Shown here one piece after another: positions 2,437 through 23,078 of a DNA stretch of 32,000 nt. The stretch spans positions 6,038 through 38,037 of the forward strand of contig JAQUQX010000014.1 of NCBI GenBank assembly GCA_028715885.1. Reading direction: 5' to 3'. Position 1 is the stretch's first letter; every line of letters begins with the position of its first letter. Both the position numbers and the translations under genes were made by a program. The DNA is from Candidatus Methanoperedens sp. (GTDB lineage: Archaea; Halobacteriota; Methanosarcinia; Methanosarcinales; Methanoperedenaceae). Below the pieces are notes generated by a model that saw only the letters and a list, made by a program, of their open reading frames with translations, was not told the origin of the DNA and ran no database searches.

Positions 2437-2457
2437 GGCATCTCCTTACCCAAAACC

Positions 2458-3006
2458 CTATTTTTTCTCTTCTAGAGCTTTGATCTGGCTGGTTAGTTCC
2501 TTTACTGTTTTCTTAAGAGAATACAACTCTTTGTTGATCTCATCGATTTCCGTCTTTGTAGGGAGATTCATGGGTTTCAGATAATTCTCTTCGAGCATTT
2601 CCCTGTTGTATTTTTGAAAATCCATTAAATGCGAATTCAATTTCCCCATGTCCGATGCAAAGTGGCCAGATTTCATGAATTCCTTGAAGGTCTCGCTATA
2701 CGTCTCGATCCAGATATTGTAAAATTCCTTGTATTTCTCAGGACTTATCTCACCGTTCATATCTGGCGCTGTCTTTTCCTGCACTTTCTGCATTGCTTCC
2801 ATGAATACGCTCTGGAAATTGGAATTGGAATCCATCCCTGCTGCATAAAGGTTAACAAAAGTAGAGAAACCCTTCATCATTTTTTCAGATTTCTCACGTG
2901 CTGGACCCAGTGCAGGCATCTCTACGAGCCTGCCTGTGGTGGCGTTGTATACATTTAACCACTGGTCAAAAAATTCCTGGGTGGATTCAAAACTGGATTT
3001 TTCCAT
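2458..3006 (-). CDS. phaE: PHA synthase subunit PhaE (short archaeal-type)
   Basis: 182 aa, located 21 nt upstream of phaC. C-terminal coiled-coil segment LPTKTEIDEINKELYSLKKTVKELTSQIKALEEKK. Carries one PEKYKEFYNIW motif shared with the upstream repeat protein. The stop codon is TAG. Confidence 0.7.
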   Translation of the reverse strand: MEKSSFESTQEFFDQWLNVYNATTGRLVEMPALGPAREKSEKMMKGFSTFVNLYAAGMDSNSNFQSVFMEAMQKVQEKTAPDMNGEISPEKYKEFYNIWIETYSETFKEFMKSGHFASDMGKLNSHLMDFQKYNREMLEENYLKPMNLPTKTEIDEINKELYSLKKTVKELTSQIKALEEKK

Positions 3007-3008
3007 AT

Positions 3009-4121
3009 TTAAACCGTGTCTTTGGAGGTGTGATACGATTTTACCCAGATATTTGACATGTTGCTAAATGTATCTGCGTATATCTTGGCAGCATTCTTCA
3101 CAGGCTCCATAATCTCCTTAAACGGGCTGAATGTGGGTGTGTTCTCAAAGAAGTTATCAAATGCCTTTCCATACATTTTTGCCCAGAGATTATAAAGTTC
3201 TTTATATGCCTCCGGGTCAGCGCCCTGCTTTGATAGTTCATCAGCTTTCTGTGACAGTTTTCCAAGAGTTGCTATCCAGGATTTGTAGAGGTTCTGATTG
3301 ACGTTTGCGCTGCGCTCAAATTGCTCTAATACTTCCTTTGAAGGTCTCATGGACTGGGCATCAAACATCCTGCCATAGAGCTCCTGATATGTGTTCATCC
3401 ATAAGGTATGAAATTCCTTATAGGCTTCAGGGCTCGCATTCCCCCGGGAGATCTCTGCTGATTTCATAGAAAGCTTCAGCATGGAGTCAGCATACGGCGC
3501 ATATAGCTTTGCGTATGAATCTTTCCATATTTTTGATATCTGCTCAAATGCCTCTGAATATATGTCGGGTGTTCCTGTGATGTTCTCAAATATCTCCTTC
3601 ATATTTTGCTGCAATGGCAGTGTAAGAAGCTCGTTGAGCATTTTCCCATAGGACTTTATCCACATATCATAGACTTCTTTATATTTTGCAGGATCTGCTT
3701 CGCACTGGAGTACTTCGCGGGTCGCTCTTGAATTCTCATCTAATTCGGCTATCCATGAACTGTATATTTTATTTGATTCCTCTGCGCTAACCAGGAGTTT
3801 CTCAAATGTTTCCTTATTGGATTCCAGGGTCGGGATTTGATAAAATTTACCGAAACTGTTCTGGGAGGTTTTCAACCATTCTCCATAAAATTCCTTATAT
3901 GTTTCCGGTGCAGCATCCTTTGAGAGTTCAAACGCTTTCCCGAAAAGCGCTTCTGTGGATTCGAACCAGGGCTTGTATAGCTTTAAGTAGGAATCTTCCC
4001 ACATTTTTGATACTGCTGTGTAGCTGTCTTCGCATGTCTTGAAACTATTCTTTTTTTCTGTGTGGATATCTGCTTTGTGGATATCTTTTCTTTCTTCAGA
4101 TTTTCTTACCATACTATTCAT
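3009..4121 (-). CDS. PhaE-motif repeat protein, putative PHA-granule-associated (phasin-like) protein
   Basis: 370 aa with an ATG start, ending 2 nt upstream of phaE. Four copies of P-[EA]-x-Y-K-E-[FVL]-[YH]-x-x-W at aa 72, 144, 231 and 303, within an (AB)2 internal duplication. No signal peptide or TM segment. Confidence 0.6.
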   Translation of the reverse strand: MNSMVRKSEERKDIHKADIHTEKKNSFKTCEDSYTAVSKMWEDSYLKLYKPWFESTEALFGKAFELSKDAAPETYKEFYGEWLKTSQNSFGKFYQIPTLESNKETFEKLLVSAEESNKIYSSWIAELDENSRATREVLQCEADPAKYKEVYDMWIKSYGKMLNELLTLPLQQNMKEIFENITGTPDIYSEAFEQISKIWKDSYAKLYAPYADSMLKLSMKSAEISRGNASPEAYKEFHTLWMNTYQELYGRMFDAQSMRPSKEVLEQFERSANVNQNLYKSWIATLGKLSQKADELSKQGADPEAYKELYNLWAKMYGKAFDNFFENTPTFSPFKEIMEPVKNAAKIYADTFSNMSNIWVKSYHTSKDTV

Positions 4122-5765: not shown

Positions 5766-6047
5766 TTAAACTTCAATCTCCGCGAACCTGTCTATATCAG
5801 TCCTGTGACCCCAGATATCCCCGACAAGAAGTTTTATATTTTTCATTTTCAAAAGCGTTTTCGTTGTGTTTGAAATCGTTTTGTGATACGATGAGGGAAG
5901 CTGTATTCTCTTCAGCTTCGGGCTTTTCATCACAAGTTCAAAAATGTTTTTTTCAGATGGTCTGAAACAGAAATGTACATTTTCTTCTTTCCCGTCGATA
6001 TCTTTGAGGTCTTCCTCTGAACCAATTATTCTGAAAACGACTTTCAT
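5766..6047 (-). CDS. hypothetical protein (93 aa)
   Basis: ATG start and TAA stop. Divergent from the FeS/fwd module. No recognisable motif. Confidence 0.45.
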   Translation of the reverse strand: MKVVFRIIGSEEDLKDIDGKEENVHFCFRPSEKNIFELVMKSPKLKRIQLPSSYHKTISNTTKTLLKMKNIKLLVGDIWGHRTDIDRFAEIEV

Positions 6048-6135
6048 AATATGTATATATGGTAAATTCTACTATTTATATTTTTTACTTTGGAGAATCA
6101 TAACATTTATACATTATAAAACTAATTCCCCACGC

Positions 6136-6594
6136 ATGGTTACAGTGATGGAGCTTTACAGGCTCCTGCCCGGAACCAACTGCAAGAAATGCGGTGAATC
6201 AACATGCATGGCTTTTGCGGTTGCCTTGCTTTCAAGGAAAAAGAATATACCCGAATGCATCCCCATACTTTTGGAAAATTTCAAAAAACAGAAAGAGAAA
6301 CTTGAATTGCTGCTTTTACCTTCCGCTGGCGCAGAAGAAACAGGCATGATTATTCATCCGGAACTGTGCACAGGATGCGGCAACTGCGTAGTCGCATGCC
6401 CTGTTGATGTCGCCAATGACCCCAGAGGCGCGGCTGTGGGATGCGCTCCCACCAACGATAAAGTGATATTCAAGGTGAAGGACGGCAAAGTTGTGGCTTT
6501 AAACATCAAGGAATGCCGGCGATTCGGGAAGAACAGGGTACTCTGCTATGCATGCATAGACCCATGCCCGGCAGGCGCCATCGAGTTCGTGTAG
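6136..6594 (+). CDS. iron-sulfur protein: N-terminal RnfB/AcsC-type putative Fe-S domain fused to a 2x[4Fe-4S] ferredoxin-like domain
   Basis: The track ORF 5944..6594 is trimmed to the first ATG (6136; an alternative ATG is at 6148). The N-terminus LPGTNCKKCGESTCMAFAVALL matches the LPxxNCxxCGxxxCxxFA signature at the N-termini of RnfB and the corrinoid Fe-S protein large subunit. It is followed by CTGCGNCVVACP and a second degenerate cluster C..CIDPCP. The stop is TAG, and the ORF is in frame with the next gene. Confidence 0.7.
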   Translation: MVTVMELYRLLPGTNCKKCGESTCMAFAVALLSRKKNIPECIPILLENFKKQKEKLELLLLPSAGAEETGMIIHPELCTGCGNCVVACPVDVANDPRGAAVGCAPTNDKVIFKVKDGKVVALNIKECRRFGKNRVLCYACIDPCPAGAIEFV

Positions 6595-6603
6595 GAGTTA
6601 TTT

Positions 6604-7812
6604 ATGGTCACCTGCCCAGGATGCGCACTGCTATGCGATGATATTGAGGTCGTTGTTGAAAATAACAGGATAAAAGAAACCAGAAATACCTGCAGGCGCG
6701 GCGCTGCAAGAATGAAAGGCTGCGTGAACAGGTTAGCGCCGTCGGTTGCACAAAAGCCAGACGATATCGAAAATGCTATCAAAAAAGCGGCGGCGATTCT
6801 TCAGAATGCAAAATCACCCATGCTTTTTGGCTGGAGCAACTCCACATGTGAAGCACAATTGGAGGGTATCCAGCTTGCAAAAAAAATGAGCGCGATAATG
6901 GATGACACCTCCTCATTTTGCCAGGGGCTCCTGATTGAAAGAATACTCCAAAAAAAGTTCAGGACATGCACGCTCGATGACATCAGGAACAAAGCAGATG
7001 TGCTTGTCTATTGGGGTTCAGACGCGCAGGATTCGCAGCCGCGGCATCTCTCGCGGTTCTCGTATTTCCCCCGCGGCGAATTACGCCAGCGCGGATACGA
7101 AGAAGACCGGATTGCGATAGCCATTGACGTGCGCGAATCCAATACTGCAAAGATATGCAAGGGGCACTTTTACAGGATTCCGCCGAAAGGAGACCGGGAA
7201 TTTATCCTCGCCCTGATGGATGCACTTTCAGGGAAAGTACCCGCGTATGAGCCAAAAAAAATGCTTGAACTGGCAGCCATATTGAAAAAAGCCGAATTCG
7301 GGGCGATATTCGTGGGCTTAGGGCTTACATATTCGATAAAAGATGATTTTGATATTTTGATACCTCTGGCGGATAAACTCCCGAATTTCAATATCATGCC
7401 CATGGTGGGTCATTACAATATGCGCGGGTTTAACGAAGCATTATTTAAAGAAACAGGTTTCGTGAACAGGGTTAAGTTTGATGGCAAAGCCATTCACGAC
7501 AGCAGATATTCTATTGTCGAGGCGCTGCGCAAAAGCATAGACGCGCTGCTCGTTGTCGGTTCAGACCCGCTCTCCAGCCTTCCCCGCTCTGTAATTCCCC
7601 ATCTTGCAAACATACCTGTAATATGCATAGACCCATGCGTTACTCTGACATCAAAAATAGCAGCGGTAACAATTCCCTGCGCTGTTTCAGGAGTGGAAAC
7701 TGGCGGCAGCACCGTAAGGATGGATGGAAAGAGGGTCGAATTATCGAAGTGTATCGAGAGTAATTATCTTAACGACAAGGAAATCCTGGCACGATTGATG
7801 GAGGCGCTCTGA
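6604..7812 (+). CDS. fwdB: formylmethanofuran dehydrogenase subunit B-like molybdo/tungstopterin protein
   Basis: 402 aa. The N-terminal [4Fe-4S] motif MVTCPGCALLCDDIEV is characteristic of FwdB/FmdB. A candidate metal-ligand Cys lies in DDTSSFCQG (Cys, not Sec). An AGGAG SD lies 6 nt upstream. A 1-nt overlap (TGATG) with the fwdD-like gene. Confidence 0.8.
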   Translation: MVTCPGCALLCDDIEVVVENNRIKETRNTCRRGAARMKGCVNRLAPSVAQKPDDIENAIKKAAAILQNAKSPMLFGWSNSTCEAQLEGIQLAKKMSAIMDDTSSFCQGLLIERILQKKFRTCTLDDIRNKADVLVYWGSDAQDSQPRHLSRFSYFPRGELRQRGYEEDRIAIAIDVRESNTAKICKGHFYRIPPKGDREFILALMDALSGKVPAYEPKKMLELAAILKKAEFGAIFVGLGLTYSIKDDFDILIPLADKLPNFNIMPMVGHYNMRGFNEALFKETGFVNRVKFDGKAIHDSRYSIVEALRKSIDALLVVGSDPLSSLPRSVIPHLANIPVICIDPCVTLTSKIAAVTIPCAVSGVETGGSTVRMDGKRVELSKCIESNYLNDKEILARLMEAL

Positions 7813-8231
7813 TGGGAATTGACGTTGGGAAGTATCTTAAAAGCCCGGAATACGAAATAAAAATCACTACTTACAGGGATATTTTCCAGGCGGAAGCGCT
7901 TGAATGCGACAGGTTTGGCGCGGAGTACATGAAACATTCGGCTTGCCTTGTAATGAGTAAAAACGACATGGTGAAAATGGGATTAAAAACAGGTAACAGG
8001 GTTAAGCTCGCAAACAATTATGGCAGTGTCGTGGTCGAGGTCAGAGAATCCAAAAGAGACGAGCCCGGAGGAATTGCTTTTATGGTGAACAGCCCCTGGT
8101 CGAATGCTCTTGTGTCTGATGAGACGGGAGGAAAAGGGATACCTGAGTTTAAGAATATTACTGCAAGGATTTCGCTGGTGAAAGATGAGGCTACGACGCT
8201 TGAAAGTTTGATGGGGAGTTTCAGAAAATAG
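7812..8231 (+). CDS. fwdD: formylmethanofuran dehydrogenase subunit D-like (molybdopterin dinucleotide-binding beta-barrel domain)
   Basis: 139 aa. The size, the position next to the fwdB-like gene and the sequence character (VKLANNYGSVVVEVRESKRDEPGGIAFMV) fit FwdD/FmdD. The stop is TAG, followed by 54 open in-frame codons. Confidence 0.75.
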   Translation: MGIDVGKYLKSPEYEIKITTYRDIFQAEALECDRFGAEYMKHSACLVMSKNDMVKMGLKTGNRVKLANNYGSVVVEVRESKRDEPGGIAFMVNSPWSNALVSDETGGKGIPEFKNITARISLVKDEATTLESLMGSFRK

Positions 8232-13070: not shown

Positions 13071-13886
13071 TTATTGCCTGTAATATTGTCCCTTCTCCTT
13101 GATACGTTTCCCAATCAACAGTCCCGCAACTACCCCACTCAGGTGCGCGCTGCGCGCAATCATGTCGCCTGCCGAACCTATGAACAGGAGGTCAAGAAGT
13201 GCAAAAAAAACCAGCGCATGGGTGATTTTCATGGGAATAAAGTAAACATAAACCATGATATCTGGCGCCAGTACCGCAAGGCATGTGAATATCCCGAACA
13301 GTGCCCCGCTTGCTCCTACAGCAGGAGCTGCCGATTTGAGAATGAAAACAGACCATAACGAGTAGCCTGCCGCAGCGACGATGCCTGAAATGAAAAACAC
13401 TGCAAGGAATTTTTGTCCCCCTATCCTGCGCTCAAGCTCGGGACCAAAAAAGAATAAAAACATCATATTGAACAAAAGATGTATCGGACCTGAATGCAGG
13501 AATATATGTGTAACAAGAGTCCATGGACGGGACAATACATCCAACGGATAAAGAGCCAGATAAGCGTCATAACGATATCCAAGGACATTCTGCAAAATAA
13601 AAGATATTATAACTATCGCCAGGATCGTTAGCGAGTAATTACTTCTTATTACCGATACGACGTTTGTCAATGAATTAAAGCGAGGTTTTGTGTATTTCTT
13701 CACAGTTACTTCGGAATCATACTGGTAGATTTTCCCGCCGCTGCGAACACGCTCTTTGTAATCCGCAAGCCCTGGACAGTTATGCGTTTCAGGCAGGCGG
13801 TGGTTATAACAATACGAGTTGCCGCAATACTTGCATGTAAAAGGCATGGGGTCCCTGAAACCGCAATAATCGCATTCTTTAGGCAT
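13071..13886 (-). CDS. rhomboid-family intramembrane serine protease with an N-terminal AN1-type zinc finger
   Basis: 271 aa. The AN1 finger is CDYCG...FTCKYCGNSYCYNHRLPETHNC. Multiple TM segments. The rhomboid catalytic Ser is in GASGALFG and the His in AHLSGVVAGLLIG. Confidence 0.85.
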   Translation of the reverse strand: MPKECDYCGFRDPMPFTCKYCGNSYCYNHRLPETHNCPGLADYKERVRSGGKIYQYDSEVTVKKYTKPRFNSLTNVVSVIRSNYSLTILAIVIISFILQNVLGYRYDAYLALYPLDVLSRPWTLVTHIFLHSGPIHLLFNMMFLFFFGPELERRIGGQKFLAVFFISGIVAAAGYSLWSVFILKSAAPAVGASGALFGIFTCLAVLAPDIMVYVYFIPMKITHALVFFALLDLLFIGSAGDMIARSAHLSGVVAGLLIGKRIKEKGQYYRQ

Positions 13887-13930
13887 TGTTTATCCGTCTG
13901 ATTCTTTTCAATTATTAATGTTCTTTGGTG

Positions 13931-14626
13931 TTATGAGCTAATAATCTGTTTGGAAATTATCTCTTTTTCCAGTTTCCCTTTAAAGAACACATAAACCTCT
14001 ATATCCCCGCCATTCTCGTACTTTCTCATCATCCGGTCGTACATCTGCCGGCTGTTCCTGAGATTCTGTTTCCTGAAGAAATCTTTGATTGAATGCATGA
14101 ACCTGAGTTTCTGCCCGAGAAAATCCAGTTCATATTTTTTTACTTCCCTTGCTATCTCTTTGCAGGTCTCATCGCTTATATCATTGTGGTACAACCCGTG
14201 CTGGTTTAAACCGCTTACCTGCCTGAAATCAACATTACCCTCCTCGTCTGCTTCCCTGTGAAGCATGTAGGGATATATTTTGCAGATTTCAGGGCGAATT
14301 TCATAATGTTTGCACCTGACGCCTGTATAGAATATGCAATCGCCGCGGGGTTTATTTTTCAGGGCATAACCCATTACATAGAACCTGCCCAGTTCATCGC
14401 AAAAATCAAAATACGGCGCAGGGCGCAGGAAACCGCTGCCAAGAGCTTCGATTATTCTTGCCGCATCGTCATCAAGGAGAAATACGTGGTCGTTGAACCC
14501 GCTGGTGCAGCATTTGCCGCAGCAATCGCATCCGAATCCCACTTCGCGGATTATATCTAGGAACCGTTCATCCGGGAAGGATGCTACGCATAGTATCTCT
14601 TTTTCGATATCTTCCGTTTTTATCAT
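13931..14626 (-). CDS. YkgJ-family cysteine-cluster protein (CxxCxxCC, putative Zn/Fe-chelating domain)
   Basis: The track start at 14638 is TTG; ATG at 14626 is preferred. The motif CDCCGKCC plus further Cys residues (CIFYTGVRCKHYEIRPEIC) is typical of the UPF0153/YkgJ family. Confidence 0.7.
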   Translation of the reverse strand: MIKTEDIEKEILCVASFPDERFLDIIREVGFGCDCCGKCCTSGFNDHVFLLDDDAARIIEALGSGFLRPAPYFDFCDELGRFYVMGYALKNKPRGDCIFYTGVRCKHYEIRPEICKIYPYMLHREADEEGNVDFRQVSGLNQHGLYHNDISDETCKEIAREVKKYELDFLGQKLRFMHSIKDFFRKQNLRNSRQMYDRMMRKYENGGDIEVYVFFKGKLEKEIISKQIISS

Positions 14627-14748
14627 GGCTTGGGTCAAAATGATTCGTTGAACTATGGCGTTATTATCTATTTAATTTATAGGGTCTTTTTTCTGTACGC
14701 GGTTTTTTTTTCAATATCGCCAAAAGAACATATAAAATAATGATAAAA

Positions 14749-14874: not shown

Positions 14875-15831
14875 ATGCTGTTCACAAGCAAAAACCAACA
14901 CGTATCGTTGAAAAAAATAGTCATCTTGATTACAGTGATTGCATTCTCTTTATTAATTACGACCGTTTCCGCCCAGGAAGACGTTTCATGCTATCACTGC
15001 CACACTCAAGTGGTCAGTGAATTCAGGAATAATATCCATTACCAGAAAGGTTTTTCCTGCGACGATTGTCACGGTGGAAAAGCCCAGCCCAATACAACAG
15101 TGATTTCTTATACAGTAATGTCGGGAGATTTTATCGGCAGACCAACAAGAAGCAATATAACAAACATCTGCTCAAAATGCCATTCCCAGGAGGCAAAAGA
15201 TTACAAGATGAGTATTCACTGGGAACAGATTGCAAAAGGTCATCCAGAGGCTGCAACTTGCACCGACTGTCATGGAATCCATGAAATTCGGGCAATAAGC
15301 GACCCCAACTCCTCATCAAACCACCAGAATAGTCCGGCAACATGCGCGAAATGTCATTCCAACAAGGAACTAATGAGCGCATGGTATTACGGGATTAAAA
15401 CTGATAGATTTGATACATATAAAGAATCCTTTCACTGGAAAGCGTTGAAAAAAGGTTATGCTCTGGTTGCAACGTGCTCGGACTGCCACGGGAACCACAA
15501 CATAAAACCCCACGAAGACCCCAAGTCCAGCACATACCCGGACAATCTTCCCAAAACCTGCGGCAAGAATAACTGTCATCCTGATGTCCAGTTTGATGCC
15601 AAGATAGCCGCAGGGCTTGTCCATGATAAGGAGTCGCTTCACACAGGAGAGCTGGTTTTCAATAAGACAGGCATGAACCCACAGATGAAAGACTATTTCA
15701 TCGGTCCATTCGACCTTGCTTACTGGATAGCGTTCTTTTTCAAGATATTGACAACCGGGGTTATAGCGGTCTTTGCAGGTATGGTTTTCCTTGATTTTCT
15801 ATCACGGGTTAAAATCCACAGGAGATGGTAA
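14875..15831 (+). CDS. membrane-anchored multiheme c-type cytochrome (6 CxxCH + 1 Cx4CH)
   Basis: 318 aa. N-terminal signal/anchor (IVILITVIAFSLLITTVSAQ). Heme motifs are CYHCH, CDDCH, CSKCH, CTDCH, CAKCH and CSDCH, plus CGKNNCH. A C-terminal TM helix (YWIAFFFKILTTGVIAVFAGMVFLDFL). Confidence 0.9.
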   Translation: MLFTSKNQHVSLKKIVILITVIAFSLLITTVSAQEDVSCYHCHTQVVSEFRNNIHYQKGFSCDDCHGGKAQPNTTVISYTVMSGDFIGRPTRSNITNICSKCHSQEAKDYKMSIHWEQIAKGHPEAATCTDCHGIHEIRAISDPNSSSNHQNSPATCAKCHSNKELMSAWYYGIKTDRFDTYKESFHWKALKKGYALVATCSDCHGNHNIKPHEDPKSSTYPDNLPKTCGKNNCHPDVQFDAKIAAGLVHDKESLHTGELVFNKTGMNPQMKDYFIGPFDLAYWIAFFFKILTTGVIAVFAGMVFLDFLSRVKIHRRW

Positions 15832-15832
15832 A

Positions 15833-16582
15833 ATGGCCCGGCAAAAATTAGTGGAAGTTTCTGACTCGAAAGCAGGAGATGGTACAATGGGTGAAATTTA
15901 TTTTAAAAGGTTTACATTCAATCAGCTTGCACAGCACTGGATAATGATCGGGACGTTCATGCTGTTGGTAGTCAGCGGCATGCCTCTTAAATTCCCCGAC
16001 GCATGGTGGTCTCCTGTAATTATCAATTTCCTGGGCGGATTTGAAATGAGGACGCAGATACACCATGCAGCAGGCGTTGGAATGGTTCTTCTCGGGATAT
16101 ACCACGTTGTTTATCATGTTTTTGTTGATAAGGATTCACTGCTTGACAGGAAAGTTTGGCCGACATTGAAAGACGCCAAGGATTTCTGGCAGACAATATT
16201 TTATTACCTCGGAAAAGCCGAACACCCGAAATTCGGACGATATAGCTGGAAAGAAAAATTCGATTACTGGGGGGCATTCTGGGGAATGGTTATGTTGTGC
16301 ATAACTGGACTTATAATGCTGTTTCCCTTCAAGGCAATGGAATTAATTCCCTATGCATACGTGCATCTTGCAACCATTGTTCATACAGACGAGGCATTAC
16401 TTGCAACCCTGTTCATTTTCATAGTCCACTGGTGGAATGTTCATTATAGCCCAGAAGTATTTCCCATGTCAAAAGCATGGATAACGGGCACCCTGTCAGA
16501 GGAACAGATGAAGCACGAACATCCGCTTGAGTATGAAGAGATTATGAGGCAGATGCAGGAAAGGGACGAAAGGCTCTCTTGA
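15833..16582 (+). CDS. diheme cytochrome b-type membrane subunit (FdnI/HydC/PhsC-like)
   Basis: The track ORF is trimmed to ATG 15833, which lies 1 nt after the upstream stop with GGAG at 15821. Four or more TM helices carry conserved His residues (QHWIMIG, HHAAGVGMVLLGIYHVVYH, HTDEALLATLFIFIVHWWNVH). These fit b-heme ligation in the formate dehydrogenase gamma / Ni-Fe hydrogenase cytochrome b family. Confidence 0.75.
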   Translation: MARQKLVEVSDSKAGDGTMGEIYFKRFTFNQLAQHWIMIGTFMLLVVSGMPLKFPDAWWSPVIINFLGGFEMRTQIHHAAGVGMVLLGIYHVVYHVFVDKDSLLDRKVWPTLKDAKDFWQTIFYYLGKAEHPKFGRYSWKEKFDYWGAFWGMVMLCITGLIMLFPFKAMELIPYAYVHLATIVHTDEALLATLFIFIVHWWNVHYSPEVFPMSKAWITGTLSEEQMKHEHPLEYEEIMRQMQERDERLS

Positions 16583-16594
16583 TTGGGGTGGGTA

Positions 16595-16618
16595 TTTTTT
16601 TTATTGATATCTCTTTTT
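16595..16618 (+). terminator. oligo-T tracts (T8 and T5) just after the cytochrome b stop; archaeal-type terminator candidate
   Basis: A T8 run lies at 16595..16602, 13 nt after the TGA at 16580..16582. A T5 run lies at 16614..16618. Archaeal RNA polymerase terminates at oligo-T. Confidence 0.5.
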
Positions 16619-16761
16619 ATTTACCACCAAGACGTCGAGGCATGGAGAGTTTTTTAAATAGCTCTGTGGTATGAAACTATGATGAGCCTTAGGGACACAC
16701 ATAAAGTATGAAAAACCGTAAGCTTGAACATATAGGTTTAAGTTTTTCATTGGAAAAAATC

Positions 16762-16836
16762 AACAACTAACTCGTACGAACTCATGCTGCCGGTGTTCAT
16801 ATTAGTTCGTTGTTATCTATGAACCACAGTTCATAG
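16762..16836. repeat. two adjacent hairpin-forming inverted repeats in the convergent spacer between the two cytochrome operons
   Basis: An imperfect 20-bp inverted repeat (16762..16781 with 16795..16814) matches at 16 of 20 positions. It is followed by a perfect 8-bp stem CTATGAAC-CACA-GTTCATAG (16817..16836). Confidence 0.5.
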
Positions 16837-16938
16837 CCGACTCTGTGCGTATAACCTCTGCGTGATACTTTTCCCTGATTTCTCTCGTTAGCTATTGCCA
16901 GCGGCAGGCAATATCATGAGAGGGAAATTAAGGGGAGA

Positions 16939-18045
16939 TTACTTTCCTTTTTTCCCGCTTGCTACGCCTGTGGCATGGCAGTCCGAGCAGAACGCAGGCT
17001 GGTGGCAGTCGCTGCATATCTTGCCTATTAGAACCTGTGTCTTATGCGTTTTCAACCAGTCACTGGGGTGTTCCTGACTGTGACAGGTTTCGCATAGATT
17101 CTCCTTTATCTGCGGAGTATGCTTTACATTGGAGTGACAGTTGTAACATGCAATCTTATTATTAGTGACGTGGTTTTTATGCACGAAACTGAAGTCATCG
17201 TATTTTTCAACCCTTTCCCTGATATTATGACATGAATAGCATTTCTCCTTAGGTACAATATCATTTGCACCGGTTGATATGTTGATATGGCATGTCATGC
17301 ATTCAGCCCCGCGGCTAATATGACTTGAATGATTGAAGTTTGTATAATTTTTATGTGTTTGCTTTGGCGGACCGTGACAGGACGGGCAGCCGGATATTGA
17401 GGTATTGCCAGGCACATTTCTGAAGTGACAGGTGAAACATGATGATGTAGTTACCACTAGATGTCCTTCATCCCTCTTGGCGAATGCCGGATGGCACTGG
17501 TTGCATGAAGGGTCAGAAACGGACTGGTGCTCTTTCATGCCGATAACAAGCATAGAATGGCAGCTTGTGCATGTTAATCCGATTCCCCTCTTGGGTTGAA
17601 GCAAATGGTTTTTGTGACTGAAATTGACTCCAATATAACCAACATCTGAAGAGAATATGCGCTTTTCATGGCAGATAAGACAGTTATTATCCATGACTTT
17701 TGCATATAGTTTCCCCGAATATTCTTCTACTGTGGTTTCATAACTGTAAAATTGCATGAGCCCGTTAATCTTGCCTTTTATATGACCTATCAAACCCGGT
17801 TCGTAATGGCATTCAACGCATCGGACATCATTATGGGAAGACGTTCGCCATGAGTCATAATATGGTCTCATTATATGGCAATTTTTCCCGCAGAATGCAG
17901 GATTCTCAGTTATGTCAAGCATCTTTTCAGTGACAACCAATGCTGCAGAAAGCATGACAATCAATACTATTATAATCGGAAGCTTATGCGCTGAAATCCA
18001 GTTCTTAACAGCAGTCGTAAGTGATATCTTTTCCATAGACTTCAC
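16939..18045 (-). CDS. NapC/NirT-type membrane-anchored multiheme cytochrome, extended (12 CxxCH + 1 Cx3CH)
   Basis: 368 aa (GTG 18045; an alternative ATG at 18036). An N-terminal TM helix is followed by TENPAFCGKNCHIMRPYYDSWRTSSH and then CVECH. This resembles the NapC/NirT/CymA quinol-dehydrogenase N-terminal module (FCxSCHxM...S.H). Eleven further CxxCH motifs follow. It abuts the upstream cytochrome gene with no gap. Confidence 0.88.
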   Translation of the reverse strand: MKSMEKISLTTAVKNWISAHKLPIIIVLIVMLSAALVVTEKMLDITENPAFCGKNCHIMRPYYDSWRTSSHNDVRCVECHYEPGLIGHIKGKINGLMQFYSYETTVEEYSGKLYAKVMDNNCLICHEKRIFSSDVGYIGVNFSHKNHLLQPKRGIGLTCTSCHSMLVIGMKEHQSVSDPSCNQCHPAFAKRDEGHLVVTTSSCFTCHFRNVPGNTSISGCPSCHGPPKQTHKNYTNFNHSSHISRGAECMTCHINISTGANDIVPKEKCYSCHNIRERVEKYDDFSFVHKNHVTNNKIACYNCHSNVKHTPQIKENLCETCHSQEHPSDWLKTHKTQVLIGKICSDCHQPAFCSDCHATGVASGKKGK

Positions 18046-19020
18046 TCACCGTTTTCTTATTAAGTACAATATCGCAAAAATTCCCAGAATTAATGCCATT
18101 CCAATGGCTGGCGTACGCGGCGGCACCGTAGGTTCAACTCCGGACACCCTGTATTCGGCTTTCTTAGCCAAATCAATCCCGTTCTGGATTTGTTTGTTAA
18201 AATCCTTCAGGTTAAACCCGTGCCATAACGAAGGAATATCATTCATGACTGCCTGTGCCTTATCCAGGTCAGCCTGGGCGGTGGAGACGTCCATGCCTTT
18301 CGCTTTTGCCCCGGCAACGGCATCTTTAGCTTTTAAGAATTCTTCCTGGAATTCTTTTTGCATTTCAAGCGCCTGTTTTGCATCATTTGGGACGCTTGCC
18401 GCAGCAATCTGGTCGTTTGGATTATGGCAAACACTGCACAGGTTAGTTAGTTCGGATGCTTTGAGCACCTTAAAAGTGTGAGGTTTATGACATGTAATGC
18501 ATGATGGGGCACGGGATTCGGCTTTCATTCTCTGGTAGTGCATTGTATTCTTGAAATGCTCAAGTTCATCTGAATGACATTTTCCGCAGGTATCGGGTAT
18601 GTTTTTGAAATAAATGGTGCTGTTGGGGTCATTTACACCCTTCATCACGGCATGAGCCCCTTGTTCTGTTTTTACATTCGGGTCCCCGCTATGGCATGAG
18701 TCGCAGGTGACATAATATTTTGAATGAATCGAATCAGACCACTGCTGGAAGTTATTAGTAGCTCTTTTCCTGATGACATCTTCATGACATTCCAGTGAAC
18801 AGGATATATTTCTTTCAGTGTGATTCAATCTTATTTCATTAAAACGGCTCTGCTCATCCGTAAAAGGAGATAATGTCTTGTGGCAGTCCACACATGAATT
18901 ATTAAGAGCGTCTAAATGCACCGCTCCTGCTGGCGCAATAAACATGATAAAATATACAATTAATATCGGTACAATTCTCAAATCGAACATAATGTGCAGT
19001 TTTTTAGTTTTTGGCGTCAT
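18046..19020 (-). CDS. multiheme c-type cytochrome (5 CxxCH + CSLECH) with a helical C-terminal domain and a C-terminal TM anchor
   Basis: 324 aa. Signal peptide. Heme motifs are CVDCH, CSLECH, CDSCH, CGKCH, CITCH and CSVCH. The C-terminus is PPRTPAIGMALILGIFAILYLIRKR. It is a paralog of 21624..22583, at roughly half identity over the heme domain by eye. Confidence 0.9.
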   Translation of the reverse strand: MTPKTKKLHIMFDLRIVPILIVYFIMFIAPAGAVHLDALNNSCVDCHKTLSPFTDEQSRFNEIRLNHTERNISCSLECHEDVIRKRATNNFQQWSDSIHSKYYVTCDSCHSGDPNVKTEQGAHAVMKGVNDPNSTIYFKNIPDTCGKCHSDELEHFKNTMHYQRMKAESRAPSCITCHKPHTFKVLKASELTNLCSVCHNPNDQIAAASVPNDAKQALEMQKEFQEEFLKAKDAVAGAKAKGMDVSTAQADLDKAQAVMNDIPSLWHGFNLKDFNKQIQNGIDLAKKAEYRVSGVEPTVPPRTPAIGMALILGIFAILYLIRKR

Positions 19021-19074
19021 TTCTCGTTTTCACCGTGTTTATAATTCGAATCATCAATATTTCAACGCAGAACA

Positions 19075-19086
19075 CCTATCCGTTTT
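19075..19086 (-). promoter_or_regulatory. AAAACGGATAGG box (minus-strand sense) upstream of cytochrome gene 18046..19020
   Basis: The reverse complement of CCTATCCGTTTT at 19075..19086 is identical to the 12-mer at 14824..14835. It is in the same orientation relative to its downstream gene and 55 nt upstream of ATG 19020. Confidence 0.4.
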
Positions 19087-19137
19087 TTATTCTGCCTTTG
19101 GGGGTCAATTTGATGAGTTGATACAATAAATAGCTTA

Positions 19138-20322
19138 CTATTTATCCGGATTTCGCTCGGGTTCTTCTTCCATGTCCTTCCATGGCGGAAGGATATACGT
19201 TACAACTATCAGGATAATAAACGGAATAGTCAATATCACAATCGCGGGCAAGACGCCTTCTTTGCTAAAGAAAACCGGGACGTATGTAAGCGTTCCACTA
19301 AGGCTCTTGGATATCTCCTGTCCTCCGATTACCACATTCCACCGCATTGCGAAAACGCCGATTAGAACAAAAACAGATGAGATTGATATCATAATCATTT
19401 TGAGGGTTTCACGGTTCTTTATCATGCCTACCAGGAGGAGTAGCACGAACGGGATGAAGATACCCATTGTCAATTGCACTCCGTAAAAGGTTGTAGCGAT
19501 TTTATCCGAAAGCAGCCTGTTTATTATCTCGATTTCCTCAAGCGATTCGTATTTCATGCTGATAATCTCAAGCATTTCCAAGGTCACATCTAATATCAAG
19601 AAAATCCACAGATAATGCGCGAGTGAATGAAGACATTTGTGGTCGATGGCATGTTTCCGAAGCTTCATTGCAATAATATATAGTAAAATCAACAGTGCTA
19701 TGCCCGACACAATGGCAGACATAAGGAATATGAGGGGCATGAGGGGAGTTGACCACCATGGATTGGCTTTAATCCCGCCAAATATGAAACCTACATAGCC
19801 ATGCAGGAAAGCGGCTGACGGGATACCAATGATGGCAAGTCTCTTTGCGAGTTTTTCGTCATCGTGCAGCGCTTTTTCAGATATGTCATATGAAAAAAGT
19901 GCAAGTGCGGAATATAACAGTTCTTTCCATCCTCTGGAGTTAAGGGCATTTTTGACAATATCTTCCCTGAAAGACAGCCATATCTCAAGCACTACCACAA
20001 TCAAATAAAATGAATAAATATACCCGAATCCCGACATTGCAGAGGTTACATGGGGAGTAAACATGATTTCAATGCCGCGCTCCGGACGCCCGAGATGCGT
20101 GAGCAGAGGCATCGTAGCGACAAGCAGGAAAGATAAAGCGGTAAGAAGTGCAAATCTTGCCACCGGTTTAATTTCTTTTTTACCAAAAACATGATACAAC
20201 GATGATGCTATGAATGCCCCGGCTACAAGACCTGTGATATACGGGTATAATACAATCAGTATGCTCCATTGTATTTCAGCTTCATTGGGATACACATATC
20301 CCCAGATTAAATTCTCCATCAT
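19138..20322 (-). CDS. NrfD/PsrC-family integral membrane quinone-interacting subunit
   Basis: 394 aa with about 10 TM helices. The N-terminus WGYVYPNEAEIQWSILIVLYPYITGLVAGAF is typical of the NrfD/polysulfide reductase family. A 4-nt overlap with the FeS subunit gene. The stop is TAG immediately followed by TAA. Confidence 0.85.
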   Translation of the reverse strand: MMENLIWGYVYPNEAEIQWSILIVLYPYITGLVAGAFIASSLYHVFGKKEIKPVARFALLTALSFLLVATMPLLTHLGRPERGIEIMFTPHVTSAMSGFGYIYSFYLIVVVLEIWLSFREDIVKNALNSRGWKELLYSALALFSYDISEKALHDDEKLAKRLAIIGIPSAAFLHGYVGFIFGGIKANPWWSTPLMPLIFLMSAIVSGIALLILLYIIAMKLRKHAIDHKCLHSLAHYLWIFLILDVTLEMLEIISMKYESLEEIEIINRLLSDKIATTFYGVQLTMGIFIPFVLLLLVGMIKNRETLKMIMISISSVFVLIGVFAMRWNVVIGGQEISKSLSGTLTYVPVFFSKEGVLPAIVILTIPFIILIVVTYILPPWKDMEEEPERNPDK

Positions 20323-21089
20323 CGCACTTCCCTGTCCAATCCGACATAGTACACCTTGGGTTTCGTTCCAAGGTCGGGTTTCAGGACATTGATTCTCTCT
20401 TCATCCAGGATTTTATTGACCGCACTGTCAGGGTCTTTCAGGTCGCCGAATTTGCGCGCCCCCACAGGACATGCCTGGACGCATGCAGGCAAAAGACCTT
20501 TTGTAATCCTGTGGTAGCACCATGTACATTTGTCGGCAGTACGCTTTTCCGTGTTAAAATACCTCGCGCCGTAAGGGCAACCCTGGATGCAATACCGGCA
20601 TCCGATACAGTAATCATAATCTACAAGGACAACGCCGTCTTTTGTCTCATACGTAGCCCCGACCGGACAAACCTGGACGCATGGCGGATTATCGCAATGA
20701 TTGCATATTTTAGGGACGTAGAAAGCTTTTTTGATATCCTCAGCCGGGATGTCATCGGTAAACCCATCGATGCTTCCGTTGGGTGAATCTATTTTCACTT
20801 CCCCACCTCTAAGTACCCTGTATCTTTCAACCCATGTCCTGTAAACCGGTTCGTCAAAAGGAACTTTGTTTTCAAGCTTGCAGGCATTTGCGCATCTTCC
20901 GCACCCGATGCATTTTTTGGTATCAACCACAAAACCCCAGTAATGTTCATTCCAGTCGTATTCACCTTTTGGAGATTCCCCTGCCGCGCTGCCGTTTGTG
21001 ACGAGGGACTCGATAACAGCAGTGCCTGCCGCCGCTCCGATAATGACCCTGCATCCGATTTTAGTGAATTCGCGCCTCGATATTTCCAT
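20319..21089 (-). CDS. TAT-exported 4x[4Fe-4S] ferredoxin subunit (NrfC/PsrB/HybA/ActB-like)
   Basis: 256 aa. A twin-arginine signal, MEISRREFTKIG. Four Cys clusters: CIGCGRCANAC, CNHCDNPPCVQVCP, CIGCRYCIQGCP and CTWC...CVQACP. Confidence 0.88.
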   Translation of the reverse strand: MEISRREFTKIGCRVIIGAAAGTAVIESLVTNGSAAGESPKGEYDWNEHYWGFVVDTKKCIGCGRCANACKLENKVPFDEPVYRTWVERYRVLRGGEVKIDSPNGSIDGFTDDIPAEDIKKAFYVPKICNHCDNPPCVQVCPVGATYETKDGVVLVDYDYCIGCRYCIQGCPYGARYFNTEKRTADKCTWCYHRITKGLLPACVQACPVGARKFGDLKDPDSAVNKILDEERINVLKPDLGTKPKVYYVGLDREVR

Positions 21090-21101
21090 GTTCTCTCTCC
21101 G

Positions 21102-21551
21102 TTATATGAACCACGGCTTATGCGGGTTATGACAGTAAGTGCATTTCAGGTTTTCACCGTGCGTTTCAGGGTCTATCTGCGGGAAATTCGCAGGTCTGGC
21201 TGCCCGTTTGAAATGGCATAAACCGCAATAGTCTCTCGAATCGTTTGCTGGCGGCGGCATTATCCTTACATTGCCCACATGTTCTTCGGAAGGACCATGA
21301 CACGTTTCACAGTTTACGGTTTTATGCCTGTCCTTTGCCCATACTGAATATATGGTTTTGTGACAGTTCTCTTCACCGCAGGCTGCCGACCCTGCATATT
21401 CTACCTGGAAGTTTTTAATTTCATTGACAGAGTCGCCCCTGTACCATCCATATTGCCCGAAAGATTGCGGGACAACTAACGACCGTACGAAAATAAAAGC
21501 AATTATCACAAGCGCCAGTAACGTAAATGCTCGTTTCAGGTGTGGCTGCAT
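21102..21551 (-). CDS. small membrane-anchored tetraheme cytochrome (3 CxxCH + 1 Cx4CH), c3/ActA-like
   Basis: The track ORF starts at ATG 21593. ATG 21551 is preferred because GGTGAG lies 6 nt upstream and it yields MQPHLKRAFTLLALVIIAFIFV, an N-terminal anchor. Heme motifs are CGEENCH, CETCH, CGLCH and CTYCH. Confidence 0.85.
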   Translation of the reverse strand: MQPHLKRAFTLLALVIIAFIFVRSLVVPQSFGQYGWYRGDSVNEIKNFQVEYAGSAACGEENCHKTIYSVWAKDRHKTVNCETCHGPSEEHVGNVRIMPPPANDSRDYCGLCHFKRAARPANFPQIDPETHGENLKCTYCHNPHKPWFI

Positions 21552-21623
21552 TATTTTCTCACCATTTAATAATAGAGGTTCTCTCCCGTTCATAAATCGT
21601 TTTTGCCATTGCTTTATAGTCCT

Positions 21624-22583
21624 CTATTTCTTTCTTATAAGATACATTACAGCCAGCAGTGAAATTATTCCTGTCAAGCCAACAAATCCAGGTGTTTTAG
21701 GAACCGATGTCCTGGTTGGTGTGTGGGATGGTTTTACCATCTCTTCTGCTTTCTTGACTTCCTTGCTGGCTGAATCTATTTCATCCCCGAAATGCGTGAG
21801 ATTGAATTCATGCCACATAGGCGCAAGACCGCCCAATGTTTTTAGCGCATTATCCGTGTACGCTTCAGCCTGCGTTACATCTGTTCCGTTCTTCTTAGCC
21901 CAGAAAATATCCTGCCTTGCCATTTCGATATTGAATTTCAATTTATTTACTTTCATGAGCATATCCTCCGCCTTGAGAGGGATGTCGTACGGTGCTACTT
22001 TTTTATACACTGAATGGCAGTTTCCGCAGACTGTCCTGAAATCCTCGGGATTCATGACCGTGAACGTATGCGGTACATGGCAGGTTGTGCATGTCGGCGC
22101 AAGTTTCAGGGCTTCAAGCCTCTTGAAATGCGTGCTGTTTTCAAAATTAGCAAGTTCCCCTGAATGACATTTTCCACACGTTTTTGGGACATTAGTATAA
22201 TAGACCGGGCTTTCAGGGTCGGTATTATTCCTGAAGTTTTTATGCGCCTTCTCTTTGGTGGCTTGTGCGGGGTCTCCTCCGTGGCAGGCTTCGCAAGTAA
22301 CTCCTTTCAGGGCATGGAGTGATTCAGACCACTGCTGGTAATTTGCAGTGGCAAGCGATCTGACTCTCTCTTCATGGCATTCAAGAGAACATGTAACCTG
22401 TCTTTCAAGGTGCTGGATTCTAATCTGGTTAAACTTCTTTTGCTCTTCAATAAAAGGAGTTAATGTCTTATGGCAATCTATACAGGAATTTTCAGAAGCA
22501 TTCGCCTGCGGGATTAAAAATAAGACAAATCCTGCTAATAATAAGGATGTTATTAATATTTTATTAAATGATTCCACTCGCAT
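21624..22583 (-). CDS. multiheme c-type cytochrome (5 CxxCH + CSLECH) with a PGF-CTERM-like C-terminal sorting signal
   Basis: The track start is GTG 22607. ATG 22583 gives the signal peptide MRVESFNKILITSLLLAGFVLFLIPQANA. Heme motifs are CIDCH, CSLECH, CEACH, CGKCH, CTTCH and CGNCH. The C-terminus is PTRTSVPKTPGFVGLTGIISLLAVMYLIRKK. The stop is TAG. Confidence 0.88.
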   Translation of the reverse strand: MRVESFNKILITSLLLAGFVLFLIPQANASENSCIDCHKTLTPFIEEQKKFNQIRIQHLERQVTCSLECHEERVRSLATANYQQWSESLHALKGVTCEACHGGDPAQATKEKAHKNFRNNTDPESPVYYTNVPKTCGKCHSGELANFENSTHFKRLEALKLAPTCTTCHVPHTFTVMNPEDFRTVCGNCHSVYKKVAPYDIPLKAEDMLMKVNKLKFNIEMARQDIFWAKKNGTDVTQAEAYTDNALKTLGGLAPMWHEFNLTHFGDEIDSASKEVKKAEEMVKPSHTPTRTSVPKTPGFVGLTGIISLLAVMYLIRKK

Positions 22584-22593
22584 TTTATTCAAA

Positions 22594-22648
22594 CCTTCCG
22601 TTTTCACACATACGTTTTTACCTTCTATCGTTTTAAACCTATCGTTTT
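22594..22648 (-). promoter_or_regulatory. four phased AAAACG boxes upstream of the minus-strand cytochrome operon
   Basis: In minus-strand sense the boxes are AAAACGATAGG (22648..22638), AAAACGATAGAAGG (22634..22621), AAAACGTATG (22618..22609) and AAAACGGAAGG (22604..22594). Spacing is 14/16/14 nt. They are followed directly by TTTGAATAA (22593..22585) and ATG (22583). A TATA-like TTATATAC lies at 22683..22676. Confidence 0.45.
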
Positions 22649-22754
22649 TTAATTACCTTTTGAACTATTATTTTGTATATAAGCTTTTGGTTTTGTAGAT
22701 ATTGTCAATTTGGGGGGATATATTTAACTATCTTCTCCACCATATAATATCCTG

Positions 22755-23078
22755 GTGAATATGGACAAAGAGACTTATAAATGTCCGAAATGTGGAAGTA
22801 ACGATAGCATTTGGCGGGGTTACAGGTATAATGAATCGGGGGAAAAAAGACTGAGAAAATGCAAGAATTGCGGTTCAAAATTCACACCAGATGATGGATT
22901 TTTAAGACGGCGTTATCAGAAAGAACACATTGTAGAGGCGGTCTCTCTTTATCAAAGAGGATTATCGCTAAGCAAAGTAAAAGATCACATGTGGCAGTAT
23001 CATGGAGTAAAAGTTTCTCGATGGATGATTCTTTTATGGTGGCGGGATTATTCCACGTTGATTGATAAATTCACTTAA
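22755..23078 (+). CDS. transposase-like zinc-ribbon + HTH protein (N-terminal module of IS1/IS6-type transposases, COG3677-like); no DDE catalytic domain
   Basis: 107 aa. The zinc ribbon is CPKCGS...CKNCGSKF. The HTH-like segment is EAVSLYQRGLSLSKVKDHMWQYHGVKVSRWMILLWW. It ends where the catalytic domain would normally begin. Only 81 nt remain before the convergent gene. Confidence 0.6.
   Translation: MNMDKETYKCPKCGSNDSIWRGYRYNESGEKRLRKCKNCGSKFTPDDGFLRRRYQKEHIVEAVSLYQRGLSLSKVKDHMWQYHGVKVSRWMILLWWRDYSTLIDKFT

Follow-up and report, generated by a model that had tools for sequence, protein, structure and literature searches.

Two published multiheme cytochrome clusters joined in one chromosomal island of Candidatus Methanoperedens, with three putative menaquinol entry points

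A stretch of 32,000 nucleotides from Candidatus Methanoperedens sp. (assembly GCA_028715885.1, contig JAQUQX010000014.1, positions 6,038 to 38,037), called the window below, was analyzed to follow up a preliminary description of an electron-transfer island at window positions 14875-22607. This locus is probably a chromosomal island that joins two gene sets already reported for the genus, Group 1 (H-G-F-E-D-C in the gene letters listed below) and Group 3 (A-B), and that provides three entry points for menaquinol electrons. The system as such is already known and the locus is a rediscovery, not a new kind of system; the idea put forward in the preliminary description is the current working hypothesis of the field for these very genes. 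In anaerobic methane oxidizers, such clusters are the leading candidates for the path on which electrons leave the quinone pool of the membrane for minerals, electrodes or partner cells. The eight genes of the island form two convergent operons, with A-B on the plus strand and H-G-F-E-D-C on the minus strand:

A, 14875-15831, plus strand: secreted, predicted heptaheme c-type cytochrome of 318 amino acids (6 CxxCH and one Cx4CH motif, CGKNNCH); partner of the cytochrome b.
B, 15833-16582, plus strand: FdnI/HydC-type diheme cytochrome b with 4 transmembrane helices; membrane subunit of Group 3.
Spacer, 16583-16938: 356 bp between the convergent operons.
C, 16939-18045, minus strand: predicted 13-heme cytochrome (12 CxxCH and one Cx3CH motif) with an N-terminal transmembrane helix, an NrfH-like tetraheme head and a nine-heme extension.
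D, 18046-19020, minus strand: predicted hexaheme cytochrome (5 CxxCH and one Cx3CH motif, CSLECH).
E, 19138-20322, minus strand: NrfD-family integral membrane subunit, apparently of the ActC type; presumed menaquinol site of the iron-sulfur module.
F, 20319-21089, minus strand: ferredoxin-like subunit of 256 amino acids with four [4Fe-4S] motifs, predicted to be exported by twin-arginine translocation; overlaps E by 4 bases.
G, 21102-21593, minus strand: small, predicted tetraheme cytochrome (3 CxxCH and one Cx4CH motif, CGEENCH) with an N-terminal membrane anchor.
H, 21624-22607, minus strand: predicted hexaheme cytochrome (5 CxxCH and one Cx3CH motif) that opens the minus-strand operon; paralogous to D, with a C-terminal anchor resembling PGF-CTERM.

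The list of open reading frames (ORFs) reproduced the boundaries of the eight genes and the convergent operons as first described, and an independent recount returned exactly the tally of five multiheme cytochromes with 36 heme motifs, composed of 31 CxxCH motifs in A, C, D, G and H (6+12+5+3+5) and five motifs of expanded spacing. Six-frame translation of the window detected 32 CxxCH motifs in the island, of which 31 lay in the reading frames of the five cytochrome genes, and 1 in the remaining 24 kb. Shuffled versions of the island contained 0.47 on average and never more than 3, so that the density of the island is far above chance. The expanded motifs were kept in 16 of 16 orthologues of A (CGKxNCH), 55 of 55 of C (CGKNCHIM), 42 of 44 of D (CxxECH), 27 of 28 of G (Cx4CH) and 26 of 26 of H (CSLxCH). 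As they are conserved in nearly all orthologues despite varying inner residues, all five behave like real heme sites. The family assignments made at first sight, NrfD, cytochrome b, NapC/NirT and a twin-arginine protein with 4x[4Fe-4S], were likewise borne out by Pfam scores above the cutoffs and by an SRREF motif and 16 cysteines in F.

The three modules that make up the island differ in their membrane components. In the cytochrome b pair, A begins with a signal peptide and has a transmembrane helix at its C-terminus (segments 15-33 and 291-309; transmembrane topologies throughout were obtained by a simple hydropathy scan) and probably binds seven hemes once its conserved Cx4CH motif is included. 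It matches the "6 heme" multiheme cytochrome of the published Group 3, has more than 90 homologue clusters in Methanoperedens at identities of at least 65% and is only distantly related to the paralogues D and H. The likely start of B is the ATG at 15833, one base past the stop codon of A, because alignments with orthologues begin there; the mechanical ORF begins at a TTG at 15773. B scored 45.7 bits against Ni_hydr_CYTB (PF01292, cutoff 30.1) and matched FdnI (1kqf_C) with an E value of 2.4e-6, and all four heme-ligand histidines of FdnI (H18, H57, H155 and H169) were aligned to histidines. It is not an equivalog of the formate dehydrogenase gamma subunit (TIGR01583, 60.5 bits against a cutoff of 115.85), and its neighbor is the heptaheme cytochrome, with no FdnG or FdnH gene next to it.

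The 13-heme cytochrome C combines features of a membrane-anchored quinol dehydrogenase with a long heme chain. Residues 24-166 matched Cytochrom_NNT (PF03264) with 33.9 bits (cutoff 24.1); this part contains a transmembrane helix at residues 22-40 followed by four heme sites at C52 (Cx3CH), C76, C122 and C159. An alignment with NrfH of D. vulgaris (2j7a_C) spans the transmembrane helix and the first three heme sites. Here, the first heme motif of C, CGKNCHIM, is paired with C-TSCHIM of NrfH and is one residue longer, and a nearly invariant lysine is placed opposite Lys82 of NrfH. The CxxCHxM motif of heme 1 in NrfH marks the methionine-ligated heme beside the quinol site. Foldseek searches with an AlphaFold model of C returned NrfH 2vr0_F as the top match (TMt 0.68), and NrfH chains, including 2j7a, were its only significant matches among PDB structures (probability 1.00, TMt 0.60-0.68, 113-148 aligned columns). 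C is best described as a relative of NrfH and not as NrfH proper. A different part of the protein, residues 236-349, matched by sequence the pentaheme subunit ActA of alternative complex III (6lod_A, E value 3e-8). All 13 heme motifs of C were invariant in 14 homologues down to 53% identity, and a look-up of the exact sequence of C retrieved no entry. The product of the adjoining gene D begins with a signal peptide, continues with about 100 helical amino acids and a proline- and threonine-rich linker, and carries a transmembrane anchor at its C-terminus. D and H are full-length paralogues with 40% identity.

The remaining minus-strand genes encode the NrfD module. E scored 168.7 bits against NrfD (PF03916, cutoff 25.8) and has about nine or ten transmembrane helices. 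Its AlphaFold model (predicted local distance difference test score, pLDDT, 83; predicted template modeling score, pTM, 0.86) was closest to ActC of alternative complex III in Foldseek searches (8k9e_C, TMq 0.80 over 390 columns), while the 8-helix PsrC (2vpw_C) reached a TMq of only 0.43. By its model, E belongs with the larger ActC subunits and not with those of the PsrC type. A sequence search of the PDB with E returned no match, and E is not an equivalog of NrfD, DsrP, HmcC, TtrC or QrcD, as it stayed far below all cutoffs (e.g. 69.4 against 347.6 for NrfD and 43.9 against 350 for DsrP). F resembles PsrB, DsrO and TtrB: it scored 100.5 bits against the Pfam family Fer4_11 and 208 bits against DsrO (NF045797), and it matched PsrB (2vpw_B, E value 4.6e-49) as well as the ferredoxin domain of ActB (6btm_B and 6f0k_B, E values of about 1e-25) in PDB sequence searches. 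Its 16 cysteines are arranged in four cluster motifs. The true start of G is probably the methionine at 21551, and its orthologues have 149 amino acids; PDB sequence searches yielded only weak matches to segments of octaheme nitrite reductases for G and nothing meaningful for H. The latter carries a signal peptide and a C-terminal transmembrane helix and ends in …KTPGFVGLTGIISLLAVMYLIRKK (given also as …PGFVGLTGIISLLAVMYLIRKK). The initial call of a PGF-CTERM-like end on H is weak, as the profile score of 16.3 bits lies below the cutoff of 18.8. In D, the corresponding position reads PAIG where PGF would stand.

To follow the island through the genus, a census with one genome per species was assembled, which comprised 48 loci whose C orthologue was full-length and at least 65% identical. 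This comparison of synteny across Methanoperedens, which had been proposed as a check, showed that both the complete island and partial forms recur. Homologues of C, A and E came overwhelmingly from Candidatus Methanoperedens, and Methanoperedens orthologues exist for all eight proteins at 62-98% identity. The nearest genome, GCA_040960975.1 (L067), contains the same eight genes and the left flank in collinear order; its identities of 89-98% for proteins and 92.7% for DNA identify it as a sister species. In M. nitroreducens (L001), the six minus-strand genes are kept as a collinear block without an A-B pair beside it, with tblastn identities of 70% (H), 75% (G), 82% (F), 87% (E), 69% (D) and 79% (C).

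The full island as found in the window was present in 7 of the 48 census loci and in two more genomes outside the census (L067 and L071). Another 19 loci contained the NrfD module and D-C without A-B, whereas D-C together with B-A but with no NrfD module detected upstream was observed in 4 clear cases and in 4 loci whose flank is too short to tell. D-C stood alone in 5 loci. A diverged lone copy of C was seen in 3 loci with adequate flanks on both sides and in 2 (L039 and L049) with one flank too short. D adjoins and precedes C in 42 of the 48 loci, and the tight co-directional run H-G-F-E-D-C recurred in at least 26. With at least 3 kb of available flank upstream of C, D-C lacked the NrfD module in 10 of 48 loci, half of which (5) also lacked A-B. 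Conversely, A-B was found alone in an unrelated context in one genome (L072), and a bacterial G-F-E trio stands alone in L069. A rough neighbor-joining distance tree of C, which indicates only how the full-island state is scattered among clades and not the ancestral state, placed this state in at least three separate clades; repeated rearrangement or loss is therefore suggested. The spacer between the operons varied as well, from 2 bp (L004) over about 140 bp (L007) to 5.8 kb (L020). In the window, this spacer showed no Rfam match, no terminator-like site and nothing else that was recognized, and no Rfam match was obtained for the window as a whole. A promoter and terminator scan of bacterial type yielded sites no more numerous than in shuffled sequences, and no operon boundary was drawn from it.

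Two bacterial or metagenomic loci extend the comparison beyond the genus. A non-Methanoperedens contig of a Joint Genome Institute metagenome (3300027815, Ga0209726_10000762; L070:1291-7158) has, in a single operon of co-directional genes, homologues of each of the three modules, with identities of 26% (A-like), 31% (B-like), 30% (a 512-amino-acid NapC/NirT multiheme cytochrome, over the head of C), 35% (G-like), 52% (F) and 58% (E), and contains no homologue of D or H. In Candidatus Coatesbacteria (CP070755.1; L061:8729-16753), a 740-amino-acid relative of C (35% identity) is preceded by an A-like multiheme cytochrome, and segments of a 699-amino-acid ORF about 2.5 kb away match A-type cytochromes (29%) and cytochrome b (30%); from these segment matches, the ORF would be a CbcL-like fusion. 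Owing to these homologues, the three-module combination is unique neither to the window nor to archaea. The argument that co-localization of the three types makes this locus special consequently failed: the same island occurs in at least nine other Methanoperedens genomes, is implicit in the published ASW-6 genome (see below) and has a homologous operon in the metagenomic contig.

The census also bears on how Group 1 is to be divided. Group 1 behaves as two units, D-C on the one hand and the NrfD protein, iron-sulfur protein, tetraheme and hexaheme cytochrome on the other, since D-C occurs without NrfD and iron-sulfur genes, C has its own anchor and NrfH-like head, and G-F-E stands alone in bacteria (L069). 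The proposal of three membrane entry points is upheld insofar as there are three separable modules, each found elsewhere without the others, with quinol oxidation as a predicted property of each. A tentative extension, which we consider possible but rather doubtful, is that Group 1 represents two autonomous quinol dehydrogenases, a pair of 13-heme and 6-heme cytochromes with an NrfH head and a minimal unit of NrfD, iron-sulfur, 4-heme and 6-heme proteins like alternative complex III or Cbc4. Together with the CbcL-like pair, they would make up an ancient cassette of three modules that came from bacteria in one piece, as homologues of all three share an operon in L070, and that was later repeatedly split or pruned in Methanoperedens. 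If this were true, the number of modules kept by a species would set its range of usable acceptor potentials.

Further relatives of the 13-heme gene were noticed during the census. Four genomes (those of L012, L026, L030 and L023) contain a second, diverged 13-heme copy with 71-73% identity (L039, L041, L042 and L044, respectively) that is accompanied by neither D nor the NrfD module nor cytochrome b. Short relatives of 217-243 amino acids (48-69% identity) that cover about half of the 13-heme protein are present in many Methanoperedens genomes (L052, L053, L055, L057-L059 and P0066-P0080); one of them, P0077, is annotated as a NapC/NirT family cytochrome c. GCA_053537695.1 (L004:1-8881) has D-C and B-A without the NrfD module; its D is directly preceded by genes for a dockerin-domain cytochrome of more than 1190 amino acids, a dockerin/Big_2 protein, a protein with S-layer, cohesin and dockerin domains, and a pilin-like protein. 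These products could form a surface scaffold beside the quinol modules.

The gene sets of the island correspond to clusters that have been tabulated before. Group 1 in Data Set S1A of Leu et al. 2020 (mBio) lists NrfD, 4Fe-4S, 3-heme, 6-heme, 13-heme and 6-heme proteins (M.Nitro_00590-00595), and Group 3 lists a cytochrome b with a 6-heme cytochrome. H-G-F-E-D-C of the window is the Group 1 gene set in an order identical to that of M. nitroreducens (L001 and L024), and A-B is the Group 3 pair of a b-type cytochrome and a cytochrome with 6 CxxCH motifs, placed in Group 3 and not in Group 4 by its synteny with the published table. In the same data set, contiguous tags of the metagenome-assembled genome ASW-6 (ASW-6_01423-01430) span Groups 1 and 3 and reproduce the architecture of the window; in CMD-1 and CMD-2, the cytochrome b pair directly adjoins the 13-heme gene while NrfD is absent from the arrangement, and for Mn-1 and Mn-2 the tags of the NrfD genes are far from those of the 13-heme and 6-heme genes. 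For M. nitroreducens, the data given by Zhang et al. 2023 (PMC10542353) on Methanoperedens_02260/61/64/65 include 12, 5, 3 and 5 CXXCH motifs, which equal those of C, D, G and H. In these data, expression of the Group 1 cytochromes was highest with soluble Fe(III), at about 1600-2060 transcripts per million (TPM) for three of them, and amounted to 100-174 TPM on an electrode; levels with Fe(III) were 1.1- to 4.7-fold higher than with nitrate. Highly expressed NrfD-type and cytochrome b-type clusters were also reported for Mn(IV)-dependent methane oxidation (Leu et al. 2020, ISME J, PMC7082337). The reading of the locus as an electron-export system therefore equals the literature hypothesis for its exact orthologues, which are expressed, with the function itself remaining a prediction.

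Quinol-oxidase activity, outward electron flow, membership of complexes and the assignment of redox potentials are all inferred by analogy with characterized systems, and the following scheme is proposed on that footing. Menaquinol produced by Fpo and HdrDE during reverse methanogenesis would be oxidized at up to three alternative membrane sites. At the first, B may pass electrons across the membrane through its two b hemes to the heptaheme A in a CbcL-like manner, A being held next to B by its C-terminal helix as FdnH is next to FdnI. At the second, the NrfH-type head of C would oxidize menaquinol at the outer face, and electrons could travel through the nine further hemes to the anchored D. 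At the third, E may oxidize menaquinol, with transfer through the four iron-sulfur clusters of F to the anchored G and then to the hexaheme H; this assembly would be similar to Cbc4 or to an alternative complex III of minimal size. D and H, the two hexaheme paralogues, are likely hand-over points to receivers that would be encoded elsewhere, namely cytochromes of the pseudoperiplasm or S-layer, and from there to Fe(III), Mn(IV), electrodes or periplasmic reductases. From the physiology of FdnI and of CbcL and ImcH, a quinol site on the cytoplasmic side of B would dissipate membrane potential and suit low-potential acceptors. The proton yield would be kept if C or E oxidized quinol at the outer face.

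Several points weigh against this scheme. In C, the position opposite Asp89 of NrfH is occupied by a glutamine, the score against the NrfH equivalog is 61.7 bits and lies below the cutoff of 134.2 (TIGR03153), and the AlphaFold model, built from 64 sequences, is of moderate confidence (pLDDT 69). The pairings A+B, C+D and E+F+G+H are suggested by gene order and analogy. Group 1 orthologues reached 362-1459 TPM with nitrate in the data provided by Zhang et al. 2023 (PMC10542353), so their expression is not specific to extracellular acceptors. Anode potential was without effect on expression in the study of Ouboter et al. 2024 (PMC10874420), which highlighted a different cluster of NrfD, iron-sulfur and Fdh-like cytochrome b genes. 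Finally, the functional statements in the Methanoperedens papers are hypotheses drawn from genomes and transcripts.

Other explanations of the same genes were considered. The six minus-strand products could instead form one supercomplex similar to alternative complex III, in which E is the sole quinol site and C is an ActA-like subunit docked on F, so that the island would have two entry points only. The ActC-like structure of E, the matches of F to the ferredoxin domain of ActB and of C to ActA, the tight co-directional run of the six genes in at least 26 census loci and the treatment of these genes as a single Group 1 in the literature all fit this arrangement. It is nevertheless unlikely, as D-C lacks an NrfD or iron-sulfur gene in the available flank of 10 loci and lies at distant tags in Mn-1 and Mn-2, C has its own transmembrane helix and an NrfH-like head with CH-x-M and a conserved lysine, the NrfD trio forms a gene set of its own in bacteria with only a small tetraheme cytochrome (L069 and Cbc4), and the B1 domain of ActB as well as ActD, ActE and ActF are absent. 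A different destination of the electrons, with the modules mainly feeding soluble periplasmic reductases or cytochrome c pools in nitrate and nitrite respiration, would account for the substantial expression of Group 1 orthologues under nitrate in the published data and for the similarity of C to NrfH, the dedicated donor of a nitrite reductase; shuttling of electrons by cytochrome c to Nar in the pseudoperiplasm has been proposed by Arshad et al. We regard this as quite improbable in view of the lack of a linked reductase gene in about 50 genomes, the separate 4-heme nrfH gene (K15876) recorded for M. nitroreducens, the higher Group 1 levels with Fe(III) than with nitrate in the data cited above and the presence of the cluster in Fe- and Mn-enriched species (L038 FeB_1, L018 Fe_173 and L012 MnB_21).

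The modules could also work in the opposite direction and reduce menaquinone with electrons from outside (Fe(II), a partner cell or a cathode), similar to Qrc in sulfate reducers. The direction of electron flow is not fixed by sequence alone, Qrc-type complexes of NrfD, iron-sulfur and cytochrome subunits as well as FdnI-type cytochromes b natively reduce quinone, and weak matches of F and E to QrcC and QrcD were obtained. Such reverse operation is very improbable, however, because methane oxidation in Methanoperedens yields menaquinol and the orthologues are up-regulated when external oxidants are supplied, and no sign of a linked electron-donor enzyme was seen. Even more remote is a location on a Borg or another mobile extrachromosomal element of Methanoperedens, which has next to no credibility here. 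Borgs are known to carry genes for multiheme cytochromes, and a weak IS6/IS1 transposase-like fragment is present at the right-hand break of synteny. Against this, the GC content of 40-50% resembles that of adjacent housekeeping genes, the flanks contain genes for FwdB/D, SepCysS, homocitrate-synthase-like, PurP-like and polyhydroxyalkanoate (PHA) synthase proteins in mixed orientation, and the same left flank recurs in several genomes, including contigs of 0.49-0.75 Mb. As its composition is uniform with that of the flanks, the locus is assigned to the chromosome. The island of three predicted menaquinol-oxidizing modules on the chromosome thus remains the preferred reading.

The flanking genes encode a class III PHA synthase, a FabG-like short-chain dehydrogenase/reductase (SDR), FwdB, FwdD, SepCysS, a homocitrate-synthase-like protein, a rhomboid protease and a CxxCxxCC protein; on the right, a weak transposase-like zinc-ribbon fragment, hypothetical proteins, a PurP-like (DUF1246/DUF1297) protein and a mannose-1-phosphate guanylyltransferase follow. 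The 14 kb on the left of the island and the 9 kb on its right encode no catalytic subunit of a periplasmic reductase, and the flanks of relatives agree, which supports the earlier statement that a terminal reductase subunit is missing from this locus. The sole gene of the molybdopterin family in the window is that of the cytoplasmic FwdB, 7 kb from the island. A hidden molybdoenzyme of the Psr, Ttr, Arr or Dms type was also considered and rejected, as no gene for a catalytic subunit was present in the island, its flanks or relatives.

A few observations on the neighborhood are recorded here. Wherever the flank of an A-B-bearing locus was long enough (18 loci), the gene of a zf-AN1 rhomboid protease (window region 13071-14638) adjoined A-B regardless of the other genes present, and the CxxCxxCC (PF03692) gene of the same region did so with the exception of L033. 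Neither was counted as a part of the system because A-B stands without them in L072; that the rhomboid protease might be connected with the cytochromes anchored at their C-termini is no more than a thought. Collinearity with the nearest genome stops at about 22696, just upstream of H, and the next ORF past H (107 amino acids with a zinc ribbon, window 22696-23078) is weakly similar to the N-terminus of IS6/IS1 transposases. A fragment with 84% identity to this ORF sits beside the D-C pair in L022. In the left flank, the window differs from the sister species by two insertions in the latter (L067:2515-3983 and L067:6322-8183), one of them encoding an AbiEii-like protein and the other a pair of AAA_15/AAA_21 ATPases, which look like defense-type cargo. 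The PHA cluster at 563-4121 contains a class III PhaC (474 bits), an SDR of the FabG/acetoacetyl-CoA reductase family and two repeat-rich proteins of 182 and 370 amino acids without a family match that could be PhaE or phasins. At 5944-8231, an RnfB/CdhE-like iron-sulfur gene is located directly upstream of fwdB and fwdD; the long N-terminal extension of its mechanical ORF may be unreal.

In comparison with known systems, Group 1 of M. nitroreducens (Methanoperedens_02260-02265 in Zhang et al. 2023) contains the same six genes in the same order with the same CxxCH counts (5, 3, -, -, 5 and 12) and is 69-87% identical in amino acid sequence. There is no difference of substance, except that the papers treat Group 1 as one unit whereas other genomes reveal two separable units. 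Group 3 consists of the same gene pair with 6 CxxCH motifs in its cytochrome, and it abuts the 13-heme gene in ASW-6, CMD-1 and CMD-2 as it does in the window. In relation to NrfH and CymA, C shares the N-terminal transmembrane helix and the tetraheme head, and a CH-x-M at heme 1 and a lysine opposite Lys82 of NrfH can be aligned. Its heme 1, however, has a Cx3CH motif where NrfH has CxxCH, the head is extended by nine more hemes and no NrfA partner is present. With alternative complex III, the island shares the ActC fold of E, the similarity of F to the ferredoxin domain of ActB and that of part of C to the pentaheme ActA; it is without the molybdopterin-like domain ActB1, ActD, ActE and ActF, has no second NrfD-like gene and no monoheme gene, and its heme proteins are different and more numerous. 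B corresponds to an FdnI-type diheme cytochrome b with four histidine ligands and A has a C-terminal transmembrane helix as FdnH does, but the heme chain of A takes the place of the iron-sulfur clusters and FdnG is missing.

An analogy with three inner-membrane modules of Geobacter (CbcL, CbcBA and ImcH) had been drawn at the outset, and a comparison with ImcH and CbcL is already contained in Zhang et al. 2023 (PMC10542353). Two parts of this analogy stand, each by architecture only: A+B resemble CbcL, though as two separate polypeptides, and C, as a NapC/NirT cytochrome, is likened to ImcH. The third had to be replaced, as CbcBA is of the bc type and is not an analogue of G-F-E. The same three-part architecture of this trio, again likened by architecture only, is found in Cbc4 of Geobacter sulfurreducens (CbcS, an anchored tetraheme cytochrome; CbcT, with 4x[4Fe-4S]; and CbcU, an integral membrane protein), to which the archaeal cluster adds the anchored hexaheme H, and Cbc4-like G-F-E trios also accompany bacterial relatives of E (L069 and L070). 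What the comparison adds to the published picture is the division into three separable modules, the NrfH-type head of C, the ActC-type NrfD protein and the correction of the Geobacter analogy to Cbc4. Genomes with one, two or three of these modules provide natural comparison sets for transcriptomic or electrochemical tests.

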